Shown here piece after piece: positions 27,863 through 41,393 of a stretch of 64,000 nucleotides of DNA. This DNA is from an uncultured Pseudomonadota bacterium (GTDB lineage: Bacteria; Myxococcota_A; UBA796; UBA9615): NCBI GenBank assembly GCA_937891735.1, contig CALAGR010000207.1:8972-72971 (forward strand), read 5' to 3'. The position numbers and the translations under genes are program-made. Every line of letters begins with the position of its first letter. The stretch's first letter is position 1. The notes under the pieces were generated by a model that saw nothing but the letters and a program-made list of their open reading frames with translations, was not told the origin of the DNA and did not search any database.

Positions 27863-30800
27863 ATGCCGTCCTGTATGCGTTCCCTTCTCGCCGCGATGGC
27901 GAGTCTCTTCATTCTCGCGCCTGCTGCCGCCCTCGCTCAGGGGGGCCCTGATGCCGGCGGCCACATCTGGAACTCGACCACGTACGACTTCGTCGTGCTG
28001 GATCCGGCTTCCGGTGGCGCCGGGACCTCCTTGACGCTCTCCACGAGCAACGACGAGGTCGACGTCACCCTGCCCTGGGCCTTCCCCTTCTACGGGAATA
28101 GCTACACCACTGTGACCGTCGGCGAAAACGGCGGGATCATGATGGGCGGCGGAGCCAACCTGAATGACTTCAACGGCAGCCTGCCGGACACGTCGTCCGA
28201 CTCCGCCGACATCGCGGTCTTCTGGGACACGATCGACGCCTGGGACAGCAGCAACAGCGTCCAGGTGGGCGGCATCTACACGCTCGATGACACCGCCAAC
28301 GGGCGGTTCATCGTCTCCTGGGAAGGGGTCGGCTCTTCGTCCGACAACACCCCCGGCGGCTCCTTCCAGGCGCACCTGTTCGCCGACGGCACCATGTCGT
28401 TCCACTACGCGTTGACGACCTTCAGCTCGTCCACCTACGTGGCCGGCGCCAGCGCGACCATCGGCATCCAGGACTTCACCAACGGCACCGCGGCCGCCGG
28501 CAATGCCCTGGAGATCTCGTACAACACCGCGTCCATCGTGGACGGCGTGACCGCCTACGGCATCGGCTTCTGCGCCGACGCGGACGCGGACGGCTTCTTC
28601 GACCTGGCCTGCGGCGGCGACGACTGCGACGACACCCTCCCGAGCGTCAACCCGGCCGGCACCGAGGTCTGCAACGACACGGTCGACCAGGACTGCAGCG
28701 GTGCAGACTCGGTCGACGACTTCGACGGCGACGGCTTCACTGCCTCCGAGTGCGGCGGTGACGACTGCGACGATCTCGACGCTGCGATCAACACCGCCGC
28801 CGCCGAGGTCTGCAACGACGGCATCGACAACGACTGCACGGCCGGCACCATCGACCTCTTCGACGGCGACGCCGACACCTACGACTGCTCGGTCGACTGC
28901 AACGACAACGTCGCGGCGATCAACCCCGGTGCCGTCGAGATCTGCGCCAACGGCACCGACGACGACTGCGACGGGATCGCCCTGGTGTCCGACGCGGACC
29001 TCGACGGCGAGCTTGCCATCGCGTGTGGCGGCACCGACTGCGACGACAACGACGCGACGCTGAACAACACAGCAGACGTCGATGGCGACGGGTTCGTGTC
29101 CTGCGACGACTGTGACGACAACTCCGCGGCGTCCCTGCCCGGCGGCGCCGAGGTCTGCGACGGCCTCGACAACGACTGCGACGGCGTCGGCGCCGGCGTT
29201 GCGCTGTTCGGCAACACCAACTCCACGTCGTCCTTCGGGCCTAGCACCAACCGCGGCCGCGGTGGCGTCTGGGTCATCACGGCGAGCACGATCCTGAACA
29301 GCCTGGGGGCCCGCCTGGACGTGCCCGCGGGCGAGGACGTCGTCTTCGCTGTCTACAAGGGGCTGGTCGCCGGGACGAGCACTTCCGCCAGCGACTTCAA
29401 CCTCATGGCGACCGCGACCTACACCTCCACCGCGGCGGGCCTCACGGACCGTATGGTGAACGTGGGCGTTCCGCTGGACGCCGGCTTCGACTACGCCTTC
29501 ATGTACTACTGGACCGCCAGCGTCGCCTATGGCTGGAACCCGAGCTCGAACCTGCCGCTGGTCACGCCGTTTGGCACCCAGGTGTCCGGCCTCACCGATG
29601 GGTCCAACAGCGCGCCGGGACCGGTGGGTACGGCGAGCACCTCGTCCACCCACTACTCCCTCATCGTGGGCGTCGGCGACGAGCTCGCGGACGCTGACGC
29701 GGACGGCCTGACCGCCTGCCTCGGGGACTGTGTCGACACCGACGCCGCGATCAACCCCTCGGCGGTCGAGGTCTGCGACGGGCTGGACAACAACTGCGAC
29801 GGCAACGCGGACGACGTGGACGGCGACTCCGACGGCGAGGTCGCCGAGGCCTGCGGTGGCACGGACTGCAACGACGGCGACGCCAGCATCGGCGCCACGG
29901 CGACCGAGCTGTGCGACCTCATCGACAGCGACTGCGACGGGCTGTCCGACGAGCTCGACACGAGCATCGGCACCGTCCTTGACCCGGCGACGTCGATGAC
30001 CAACAGCCCCGCGCTGTTCTTCGACAACAACGCAGACGTGACGGACACGATCACCGTCGCCGGAACGACGAGCCCGATCCTGGACGTGAACGTCACGGTG
30101 GACATCACGCACACCTACACCGGCGATGTCACCCTCACGCTGACGTCGCCCACCGGCACGAGCGTGGTGCTGACGGACCAGAACGGCTCGTTCCAGGACA
30201 ACTTCTCCGGGACCGTCTTCGATGACGCGGCCTCCACCTCGATCACCAACGGCAGCGCGCCCTTCGCTGGCTCCTACCAGCCGGAGCAGCCCCTCTCCAG
30301 CCTCAACGGCGAGGCGGCCGACGGCGCCTGGGTGCTGACCCTGGCCGATGGCTTCGGCGGGGACAACGGCACGCTGAACACCTGGACCCTCGACATCTCC
30401 ACCGGCGTGAACTCGGACGGTGACGGCGACGGCTTCGTGTCCGCCACCTTCCTGTGCGCCGCGGTGCTCGGCGACTGCGACGACACGGACGTCACCATCT
30501 ACCCCGGCGCGATGGAGGTCTGCGGCGACACCGTCGACCAGGACTGCGACGGCCTGGACCTCGCTGCGGACGCGGACGGTGACGGCGCCAACGATGTGGC
30601 GTGCGGCGGCACGGACTGCGACGACAGCAACATCCTCGTGTTCGACGGCTCCGACTACGACCTCGACCTCGCCCTGGGCTGCCAGGACGACTGCGACGAC
30701 ACGCTCGCCGCGGTCAACCCTTCGGCGACCGAGGTCTGTAGCGACGGCATCGACAACGACTGCGACGGCGTCGCCCTCGAGGGCCTGGACGTCGACGCGG

Positions 30801-40011: not shown

Positions 40012-41393
40012 GCGGCCGCATCGGCAGGCGCCGGGTGCTGACGGTCGCGCGGCGGGAGTTCCTGGCCACCGTCAGCAGGCCCGGCTACCTCGCCACCCTC
40101 GTGCTCATGCCCCTGCTGATGGCCCTCATCGGGGTCCTGCCCGCGGTGGGCATCGCGCTGTCGGGCGGGGCCGAGGCCCTCATCGGGCTCAAGGGCGGAG
40201 GACGGATCAACGTGATCGGTCTGGTGGATGAGGGCAACGTGGTCAACGCGGACGCGCTGGCCTGGCACAACACCGACCAGGAGGCCGCCGCGCAGCAGGG
40301 CCGCCGTCCGCAGGTGCAGAGCGAGCTGCCGGAGTTCATTCGCTCCCGGACCGACGCGGATCGGGACCACGGCGGGTTCGACAGCAACTGGCGGCTGCAG
40401 CTCGAGCTCCTGCCGGATCGCGCCGCGGGCCGGGACGCCGTGTCCAACGGGCGCGTGGCGGCGGTGTGGGTCATCGAGGCGGACTGGATGGACTCCTCCG
40501 CGGTGACCGTCCTCGTGCCGAAGCAGAGCCCACTGGGCAAGGGGCTGCAGCCGGGGCGCACGGCGGTCGCGCGCCTCCTGCGGAGCTCGCTGGCCCGCCC
40601 GTACATCAGCGATCCGCGGATCCAGGCCCGGCTCCTCCAGGTGATGGAGGCCGCGAACGAGGAGGTGGCGGCCCCCGGCGCGGCGCCCGAGCCCGAGGAA
40701 GGGTCACCGTGGCAGGAGGGGCTGGCGCTCATCGTGCCGCTGCTGTTCGCGAGCTTCTTCTCCATGTCGATCTTCATCGCGTCGGGCTATCTGCTCGACG
40801 GCATCGGCGAGGAGAAGGAGAACCGCGTCCTGGAGGTGCTGCTGGCGAGCCTGACGCCGGAGGAGCTCCTCGCCGGCAAGATCCTCGGCCTGGGAGGAGC
40901 GGGACTGCTCCAGTCTTCGGTCATCGCGGTGATCGGCCTGCTGCCGATGGTCGCCCTGGGTCTCATGGCCATGGGGTTCGGCAAGATCCTGGCGATGCTG
41001 GCGTGCGCGGCCCTGGGCTACGCGGAGTACGCCTCGATCATGGCGGCGAGCGGGGCGGTGGCGGGGAATCGCCACGAGGGCCGGCAGATCAGCGCGGGCT
41101 TCTCGTTGCTCGCGGCCTCGCCCATGTTCCTGTTCCCGGTGTTCATGAGCAACCCCGACGGCACCGCGGCGGTGGTGATGAGCCTGCTCCCGCCGACCGC
41201 CCCCATCGCGATGATCTTGCGGCTGGGCCTGGGCACGCCGCCGGCCTGGCAGCTCGCCCTGGCCTTCATCGGGATGGCGATCAGCGGGTGGATGTCGTGG
41301 CGCGTGGGGTCGCGGGTGTTCCGCGTCGCGATCCTCTTGACCGGCGCGCGGCCCCGCATCGGGCAGATCTGGCAGTGGGTGCGCGGGCAGTGA
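40008..41393 (+). CDS. ABC-2 family permease (NatB-like, large extracytoplasmic loop)
   Basis: The ATG overlaps the ATPase stop (ATGA). An N-terminal TM helix is followed by a ~200-aa soluble loop and then about 5 C-terminal TM helices. Confidence 0.8.
   Translation: MSGRIGRRRVLTVARREFLATVSRPGYLATLVLMPLLMALIGVLPAVGIALSGGAEALIGLKGGGRINVIGLVDEGNVVNADALAWHNTDQEAAAQQGRRPQVQSELPEFIRSRTDADRDHGGFDSNWRLQLELLPDRAAGRDAVSNGRVAAVWVIEADWMDSSAVTVLVPKQSPLGKGLQPGRTAVARLLRSSLARPYISDPRIQARLLQVMEAANEEVAAPGAAPEPEEGSPWQEGLALIVPLLFASFFSMSIFIASGYLLDGIGEEKENRVLEVLLASLTPEELLAGKILGLGGAGLLQSSVIAVIGLLPMVALGLMAMGFGKILAMLACAALGYAEYASIMAASGAVAGNRHEGRQISAGFSLLAASPMFLFPVFMSNPDGTAAVVMSLLPPTAPIAMILRLGLGTPPAWQLALAFIGMAISGWMSWRVGSRVFRVAILLTGARPRIGQIWQWVRGQ

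Follow-up and report, generated by a model that had tools for sequence, protein, structure and literature searches.

The window analysed here, a stretch of 64,000 nt of contig CALAGR010000207.1 from an uncultured bacterium that is probably a member of the Myxococcota, carries at 27863-41393 five genes on the plus strand: two encode giant surface proteins (G1 and G2), one a class I S-adenosylmethionine (SAM) methyltransferase (MT) and two an ABC ATPase and an ABC-2 permease (Table 1). We report a new partnership, pinned at a stop codon, between one family of giant adhesins with MYXO-CTERM tails and a private clade of MTs. The parts themselves (MYXO-CTERM proteins, MopE arrays, P-domains, NIDO, class I methyltransferases and ABC-2 pairs) are all of known kinds. 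An earlier reading made from the letters and open reading frames (ORFs) alone, hereafter the sequence-only reading, knew of no described system with this combination; in a searchable library that is incomplete, we found no paper linking MYXO-CTERM or MopE-motif proteins with a methyltransferase. To the overall picture of the giants and their partner MT developed below we assign a probability of about 0.5.

Anchored surface proteins of Myxococcota belong chiefly to the MYXO-CTERM class, and both the lipid of the anchor and the lipidating enzyme are unknown (PMC11980579). An MT gene pinned to the stop codon of such a protein across diverged lineages is a concrete lead, either to a surface-protein methyltransferase of new specificity or to the chemistry of the anchor. 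The adhesin family is defined here by three elements: a NIDO-like module (M2), a MopE array and a MYXO-CTERM tail.

MT orthologues were compared in 10 contexts: the window and the related metagenome loci L002, L004, L006, L008, L010, L014, L095, L099 and L100, of which L014, L099 and L100 were added from matches listed in genome and metagenome pattern scans. Identity to the window MT is 83% in L099, 80% in L002, 63% in L004, 56% in L006, 52% in L010, 51% in L008 and 50% in both L014 and L100. The clade (47-84% identity, ~47 clusters) comes entirely from metagenomes and metagenome-assembled genomes (MAGs), and the next homologue is only 36% identical. In all 10 contexts the MT gene lies directly 3′ of, and on the same strand as, a gene for a MopE protein ending in C..C.C.[SA]S, a helix and RRRR; the step from the giant stop to the MT start is a 4-nt overlap or a gap of at most 20 nt. 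The MT-adjacent giants vary in length (694-1787 aa) and in accessory domains, and every one with the relevant sequence present has the M2 module (34-67% identity). None of ~158 listed loci with distant MT homologues (≤35% identity, several of them in Myxococcota MAGs), taken as a control, has an ORF with the MopE motif within 10 kb. Other MopE proteins of the same loci, one with Kelch in L006 and one with MAM in L008, have no adjoining MT. The pairing of giant and MT is conserved and specific, and the accidental synteny that the sequence-only reading had raised as a refutation is contradicted as far as the MT is concerned.

MT start codons are mostly GTG or TTG. In the window the junction reads CGGTGAC, with the GTG start and the TGA stop overlapping at 38342-38345, and in L100 an ATG lies nine codons past the giant stop. 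The conserved MT N-terminus (YDALW...GPGFRSRY) is encoded right at the giant stop in L008 (~9905-9925) and L095 (8537-8560). At these two junctions only a CTG is available, with no ATG, GTG or TTG, and gene callers have consequently truncated the MT to 196-201 aa and left larger gaps after the giant; the gene models are corrected here. In L095 and L100 the reading frames of giant and MT are continuous but for a single stop codon, whereas in the window, L002, L004 and L006 the two frames differ, so that a read-through fusion of the two proteins is not general. To judge from the codons at the junction, the pattern fits translational coupling by termination-reinitiation, a process that has been described (PMC6728339).

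G1 and G2 are collinear and 40-49% identical; they are indeed tandem paralogues, as had been claimed. The MopE motif (Pfam PF11617, cut-off 27 bits) matches 23 stretches of G1 (7e-180, 583 bits) and 16 of G2 (3e-132, 431 bits), and a regular expression of the DC[DN]D type finds 26 and 16 copies, close to the 26 and 17 of the earlier hand count. At the DNA level the repeat appears as diverged tandem units of 132-138 nt (44-46 aa). The P-domains seen in the sequence-only reading are found by Pfam as well (P_proprotein, PF01483, cut-off 21 bits), two in G1 (116 bits) and one in G2 (49.8 bits). Both proteins consist of Asp to 18-19% and of Lys plus Arg to 0.6-1.2%, with 2 Lys each and an isoelectric point (pI) of ~4; G1 has 374 Asp and a pI of 4.05. 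The Cys residues, 103 in G1 and 75 in G2, amount to ~4 per repeat unit. Such a composition fits Ca2+ binding and supports the Ca-binding part of the role proposed earlier.

Signal peptides, judged by eye, are typical and end in AAALA/QGG (G1) and GLAAA/QAGG (G2). A tripartite tail (Cys signature, hydrophobic helix, Arg cluster) could be read in G1, G2 and seven relatives. The MYXO-CTERM model TIGR03901 (cut-off 20 bits) scores 29.1 bits with the isolated G1 tail and a marginal 21.2 bits with that of G2; in the whole-protein scan G1 passes with 21.0 bits and G2 is not reported. With the hallmarks of export and anchoring in place, the surface display proposed in the sequence-only reading gains support.

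Conservation along G1 is uneven: between species, orthologues are 35-65% identical in the N-terminal two-thirds and 79-90% in the membrane-proximal third. The most divergent stretches (35-39%) include the first P-domain and a beta-rich mid domain, for which a Pfam scan gave no match; it is restricted to G1-type proteins and is 43% identical in the G1 of L004. Faster evolution of the distal two-thirds is common for adhesins. Further MopE-array proteins occur in the same lineage (L006 12598-15555, L008 1-934 and L014 231-3452), with a Kelch propeller or an InhA-like MAM domain as heads and FG-GAP proteins as neighbours; they suggest a modular family of stalked surface proteins.

Each giant has two NIDO-like modules, an N-terminal one (N) and M2, which are 21-31% identical to each other and have the motifs F.FPF[CY]G, NG..(T)F and A.[FL]W.DL.P in common. 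Identities of G1 M2 to its counterparts in L004, L006, L008, L010, L014 and G2 are 34-67%. Direct scores of the window modules with Pfam NIDO (PF06119) are at most 18 bits against a cut-off of 25 (18 bits for G1 M2, no direct Pfam match for G1 N), and 6 of 12 related modules gave sub-threshold matches (best 4.5e-4). Seven of the eight top matches of a profile built from N and M2, when scanned themselves, clear the NIDO cut-off, and two homologues bear a precomputed PF06119 assignment. The label 'NIDO-like' given in the sequence-only reading is thus right in the sense of remote homology.

A word-indexed search with the M2 alignment returned five proteins and missed the giants, and an exhaustive profile search was used instead. 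It yielded 27,475 clusters at 50% identity, often with several module copies per giant protein and as many as 15 where the protein is 4000-5600 aa long, which makes this module a very large bacterial superfamily. Its relatives adjoin or are fused to leishmanolysin and papain-type protease domains and TSP_3 repeats. The profile also picks up RemA, a gliding adhesin of Flavobacterium, in its N-terminal domain (8GL6 chain D, residues 53-178; 3.4e-9) and, weakly, ConA-type/legume lectins. The AlphaFold2 model of M2 is all-beta with a predicted confidence (pLDDT) of 70, and Foldseek found no PDB match to it at E ≤ 0.001, so that a ConA-like reading rests on the weak sequence matches to legume lectins. 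The module would seem to be a binding domain of general use in surface proteins. RemA differs from the giants in being a substrate of type IX secretion and not a MYXO-CTERM protein.

Table 1. Features of the locus and of the wider block in the window (positions in nt unless marked aa)
Feature	Position	Strand	Evidence or remark
Omp85-like protein, ~900 aa (start probably near 24319), and NlpC/P60 hydrolase (27018-27674)	23893-27674	+	Pfam, homology
G1, giant surface protein, 2062 aa	27863-34051	+	ORF list, Pfam, NCBIfam
Order in G1: signal peptide (aa 1-25), N module (aa 27-236), MopE repeats, mid domain (aa 445-612), P-domains (aa ~701-845, ~1076-1215), M2 (aa 1536-1725), MopE repeats, MYXO-CTERM tail (aa 2027-2062)			
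G1 N-terminal NIDO-like module	27941-28570	+	Homology to M2 modules
G1 beta-rich mid domain	29195-29698	+	Between two MopE arrays
G1 M2, second NIDO-like module	32468-33037	+	Homology to other M2 modules
G1 MYXO-CTERM tail: CNTGCGNCAS, hydrophobic helix, RRRRVL, stop	33941-34051	+	TIGR03901
G2, paralogue of G1, 1390 aa, ATG start	34173-38345	+	ORF list, Pfam, TIGR03901
Order in G2: signal peptide, N module (aa 24-225), MopE repeats, P-domain (aa 485-588), M2 (aa 857-1058), MopE repeats, tail CTGCQCES, helix, RRRR			
G2 N module	34242-34847	+	
G2 M2 module	36741-37346	+	
Class I SAM methyltransferase (MT), 251 aa, GTG start	38342-39097	+	Pfam Methyltransf_23, 8.7e-19
ABC ATPase, DrrA type, 305 aa	39094-40011	+	Pfam ABC_tran and DrrA1-3_C
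ABC-2 permease (ABC2_membrane_3), 461 aa	40008-41393	+	Pfam, 4e-32
Ser/Thr protein kinase, 50 bp past the permease	41444-42997	+	Pfam Pkinase, 2.4e-41
Ser/Thr kinase, 704 aa, downstream of the CPBP gene	47563-49677	-	Wider block
CPBP (Rce1-like) intramembrane glutamic protease, start uncertain	49702-50529	-	Pfam Rce1-like, 2.9e-18, 66 bits

Two known systems help to interpret the repeat arrays. One G2 repeat aligns to residues 3-45 of MopE* from Methylococcus capsulatus (PDB 2VOV; E = 2.9e-5). Nothing beyond this N-terminal motif aligns, however, and the giants hold the motif in long arrays; the rest of MopE, which we take to hold the copper site, has no counterpart in them. The 'metal-binding' label that the sequence-only reading took over from PF11617 rests on 43 N-terminal residues of MopE and not on a demonstrated copper site. 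The second comparison is with the type 3 repeats of thrombospondin and COMP, which are Asp-rich, disulfide-linked and bind Ca2+. The giants likewise have loops of the D-x-D-x-D-G type interleaved with paired Cys, and relatives of their NIDO-like modules adjoin TSP_3 repeats; repeat length and Cys spacing differ, and Pfam TSP_3 has no match in G1 or G2.

For the tails the model is TraA of Myxococcus xanthus with its myxosortase MrtX. According to the MYXO-CTERM scheme, a protein is exported by Sec, lipidated at Cys by an unknown enzyme, cleaved by a CPBP protease and brought to the surface by type II secretion (PMC11980579). Signal peptide, tripartite tail and Cys-rich stalk are alike in TraA and the giants. 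Unlike the generic GCGC, though, the signature of the giants is C-x-x-C-x-C-x-[SA]-S; an MT gene joined to the stop codon goes unmentioned in the MYXO-CTERM papers, and the CPBP protease encoded nearby is no recognised myxosortase. It would be an extension of this parallel to take the giants as polymorphic kin-recognition receptors like TraA, with the MT and the ABC pair serving their display. A MYXO-CTERM tail, a Cys-rich stalk and a distal beta-rich module do make up the general TraA layout, and G1 is more divergent distally than proximally. That divergence, however, compares species and not alleles, and the huge size of the NIDO-like family, whose members occur in proteases and other giants, points to a general binding module. 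Moreover, the repeats of the giants are PF11617 units, and Pfam and NCBIfam scans detected neither a PA14-type domain nor the TraA-type Cys-rich repeat. The neighbours (Omp85-like, NlpC/P60, MT, ABC pair, kinase) include no adjoining TraB-like partner with an OmpA domain. With the MYXO-CTERM tail as the only specific element in common, the analogy with the TraA layout drawn in the sequence-only reading is loose, and we consider a TraA-like receptor function extremely improbable.

The MT itself is a well-formed enzyme of its class. It scores 68 bits with Pfam Methyltransf_23 (cut-off 27), and the motifs GxGxG (G50, G52, G54) and CSEVLEH are invariant in 23 orthologues. The AlphaFold2 model (pLDDT 88) has a Rossmann-type fold and matches structures of class I methyltransferases at ~1e-12. 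NCBIfam equivalogs (UbiG, BioC, Tam and others) give at best ~24 bits against cut-offs of 103-320. The MT has no signal peptide and should therefore be cytoplasmic. An idea that the clade might be unusually basic, to suit a polyacidic substrate, was rejected, as pI values range from 5.8 to 9.9.

Pairs of a methyltransferase and a surface protein have precedents. FliB is a cytoplasmic methyltransferase that acts on flagellin. In Rickettsia, PKMT1 and PKMT2 are cytoplasmic class I methyltransferases that modify the giant outer-surface protein OmpB (PMC8232902). In both systems, as in the locus described here, the partner of a class I SAM methyltransferase is an exported surface protein that is abundant or very large; in those systems the enzyme modifies this partner before export. 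In contrast to the giants, with 2 Lys apiece, the residue methylated in those systems is Lys, and the PKMT genes are not joined to the stop codon of the substrate gene. PKMT2 is a weak match of the MT profile (E = 2e-4), a similarity of the generic kind.

Combining these data, the most plausible reading of the giants is as surface adhesins that bind Ca2+, are locked by disulfides and are anchored by a lipid; Ca2+, disulfides, lipidation and exposure are argued here by analogy with the systems above. Each giant would be exported through Sec and would fold in the periplasm into a long acidic rod of ~26 (G1) or 16 (G2) MopE-type units. The four Cys of a unit would form two disulfides, and its Asp-rich loops, similar to those of thrombospondin type 3 repeats, would bind Ca2+. 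The rod would bear the NIDO-like (lectin-like) modules and the P-domains as binding modules. The helix of the MYXO-CTERM tail would hold the protein in the inner membrane at first. If TraA is a guide, a lipid would then be attached to the tail Cys, a CPBP-type myxosortase would remove the helix, and transfer to the surface would follow, where the more variable outer two-thirds could bind a ligand or matrix. The MT would be translated by termination-reinitiation at the giant stop, and would consequently be made only where and when a giant is being completed. Given its cytoplasmic location, the MT most likely has as its target either the giant precursor, methylated prior to or in the course of export, or the Arg-rich tail end on the cytoplasmic side. 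Our best guess is thus that the MT, whose association with the giant family was observed directly, is a dedicated partner with a target on the giant precursor or its tail. Methylation of Lys is an unlikely main role, with no more than 2 Lys per giant.

Several observations weigh against this picture. Each giant has only two Lys, and once mature it is in a compartment free of SAM, beyond the cytoplasm. Proteins with MopE repeats or MYXO-CTERM tails are widespread in Myxococcota that lack this MT, with one MT orthologue in the GTDB species representatives among the matches listed, and the MT is therefore not needed for these features in general. The CPBP protease encoded in the 64-kb window fails as a recognised myxosortase with all models (Mrt_core 21.5 bits vs 100, MrtJ 38 vs 75). 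The structures nearest to the MT, with TM-scores of ~0.6, belong to small-molecule, prenyl-diphosphate, sugar and peptide methyltransferases. Its closest relative outside the orthologous clade (L012 6172-6927, 36% identity) lies in a surface-glycosylation cluster. Finally, all 10 contexts belong to one uncultured lineage with a wider conserved block, so that inheritance of gene order could account for some of the linkage.

The last point, taken to its limit, would deny any functional link: gene order would simply have been inherited in one family-level lineage, with compact overlaps of the kind common in GC-rich genomes, and the locus would be an ordinary pair of uncharacterised surface proteins. 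The records are labelled as Deltaproteobacteria bacterium, Myxococcota bacterium and, for one MAG, Rickettsiales. A block of ~25 kb recurs in the window, L004 and L095, running from the Omp85-like gene through NlpC/P60, giants, MT, ABC genes, kinase, GH31, histidine kinase, kinase and CPBP to PALP. The MT has no family-specific annotation, and overlapping stop/start pairs are frequent in prokaryotes generally (PMC6728339). Inheritance alone, however, fits poorly with what happened around the junction. Flanking genes differ between lineages, being reshuffled by insertions and losses, and with other genes upstream, in L006, L008, L010 and L014, while the giant-MT junction stayed at 50-56% protein identity; the ABC pair of the same block did separate or vanish; and the MT start remained pinned to the giant stop even where no canonical start codon exists. 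We regard the absence of a functional link as unlikely.

A more serious alternative, still somewhat unlikely in our view, is that the substrate of the MT is not the giant polypeptide but a small molecule, lipid or glycan. It might be the lipid donor for the tail Cys, a sugar decorating the giant or an envelope lipid; the ABC-2 pair, where present, would export or flip the product, and the MT would be co-expressed with the giant because the product is needed where giants are installed. The structural matches agree with such a role, as they include C-methyltransferases of farnesyl and geranyl diphosphate (FPP/GPP), the sugar O-methyltransferases AtmM and RebM, BioC and N-methyltransferases of phosphoethanolamine and phosphatidylethanolamine. 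Many unrelated class I methyltransferases reach Foldseek scores just as high, though, and the scores thus give no pointer to the substrate. The 36% homologue in L012 has among its neighbours genes for GT2, GT4, CapK, LPG synthase and PMT-family transferases; an Ice_binding/SpaA-like protein and a pilin-like N_methyl protein are encoded there as well. In the locus itself no glycosyltransferase, prenyltransferase or lipid-synthesis genes were found among the genes scanned, although GDPD and GH31 genes recur nearby. In the window the ATPase start overlaps the MT stop, and in L002, L004, L008 and L095 the MT and ATPase genes likewise overlap or adjoin directly; yet the MT-giant junction is kept where the ABC pair was lost or moved. 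That the lipid on the MYXO-CTERM Cys is unknown (PMC11980579) leaves room for this alternative.

A narrower version of the partnership would have the MT modify the sorting tail at its Cys, its Arg cluster, the lipid on the Cys or the new carboxyl end created by cleavage, and would make MT and CPBP protease a bacterial counterpart of the eukaryotic CAAX route (prenylation, Rce1, ICMT). The likeness to CAAX processing is confined to the Rce1-like CPBP protease: the MT is a soluble class I enzyme with no ICMT match, and no prenyltransferase is present in the genes scanned. This version is very unlikely; if true, it would provide the first enzymatic handle on the modification chemistry of MYXO-CTERM proteins, in a route dedicated to one family of giant adhesins.

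The module of five genes proposed in the sequence-only reading is not a unit. Giant, MT and ABC genes are not co-conserved as a set: giant and MT go together in 10 of 10 contexts, whereas the ABC pair follows the MT in six (window, L002, L004, L008, L095 and L099). In the lineage of L006 and L094 it lies ~9 kb off, with six genes between, still together with the downstream Ser/Thr kinase, and in L010, L014 and L100 no ABC pair is found downstream of the MT. With one displacement and three absences, the ABC pair does not qualify as an exporter dedicated to the giants. Thus, of the coupled 'MT and ABC' module the MT link to the giants holds and the obligatory ABC link does not; the proposal that maturation or export of the giants uses the MT, which should be cytoplasmic, is unsupported.

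The ABC genes have the layout of an ABC-2 exporter, an adjacent pair with Pfam scores of 94 (ATPase) and 112 bits (permease). They resemble DrrAB, NatAB and GldA exporters in the DrrA-type C-terminal domain, the ABC2_membrane_3 permease and the overlap of the two genes; unlike in those systems, the ATPase is below every NCBIfam equivalog cut-off (DrrA 195 bits vs 312, GldA 175 vs 402), and distant homologues occur in unrelated contexts. The permease matched no NCBIfam model and no sequence relative in PDB. A GldA-type gliding transporter was considered, in view of the RemA match and of GldA being second best in NCBIfam, and was rejected on the GldA score and on the lack of a GldF or GldG match for the permease. 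Permease orthologues (48-82% identity) come from the same lineage as the loci of the giants, and homologues at 31-34% belong to stand-alone ATPase and permease pairs among unrelated genes. The kinase follows the permease in L008, L094 and L095. The ABC pair and the kinase are best seen as a separate, often co-located module inside a larger conserved block.

Upstream of the giants, that block contains the Omp85-like and NlpC/P60 genes, a pair also present in L004, L010 and L095. The Omp85-like protein is 43% identical to an Omp85-annotated protein of L010 and has a weak Pfam Omp85 match (0.0011); its long N-terminal region has no family match. The pair could be an outer-membrane partner of the giants. 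Downstream are the kinase, GH31 and histidine kinase genes and, on the minus strand, genes for a Ser/Thr kinase and the CPBP protease. Much of this wider block recurs in L004, L010, L014 and L095, and in the same four loci the CPBP gene, next to the kinase gene, is again near the giants. The protease has visible EExxxR, FxxxH and HxxxN motifs; among NCBIfam models it is most similar to a family of fused 'ABC permease/CPBP protease' proteins, in their CPBP half (3.6e-18). We regard it as a candidate cleaver of these variant tails.

Gene coordinates and stop/start overlaps of the sequence-only reading proved correct in the ORF list, in independent gene calls and in the junction read directly from the sequence. 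The independent calls, made on the matching ENA metagenome contig ERZ27051342 k141_321350, reproduce the boundaries of all five genes, and the permease boundary rests on them, this gene being absent from the filtered ORF list used for the codon-position values below. By ORF coordinates, the MT/ATPase (39094-39097) and ATPase/permease (40008-40011) junctions are also 4-nt stop/start overlaps. For G1, G2, MT and ATPase the plus strand is backed by a G+C content of 0.90-0.94 at third codon positions, in a window with ~71% G+C. An antisense ORF spanning G1 (27755-34264, minus strand, 2169 aa) fails the codon-position test that G1 passes and was rejected as a high-GC artefact.

A scan for promoters and terminators gave nothing exceeding shuffled expectation. 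The spacer between G1 and G2 (34052-34172) contains, just past the G1 stop, a 15-bp hairpin at 34073-34106 on the plus strand (GAAGGGGAGGGUGCC-GA-GGCACUCUCCCCUUC), which matches no Rfam family and has no U-run 3′ of it. The spacer folds with a minimum free energy of -59.8 kcal/mol (z = -3.3). Through attenuation or mRNA stabilisation the hairpin may set the ratio of G1 to G2; it is retained with paired base changes in L002, and L004 has a shorter version.

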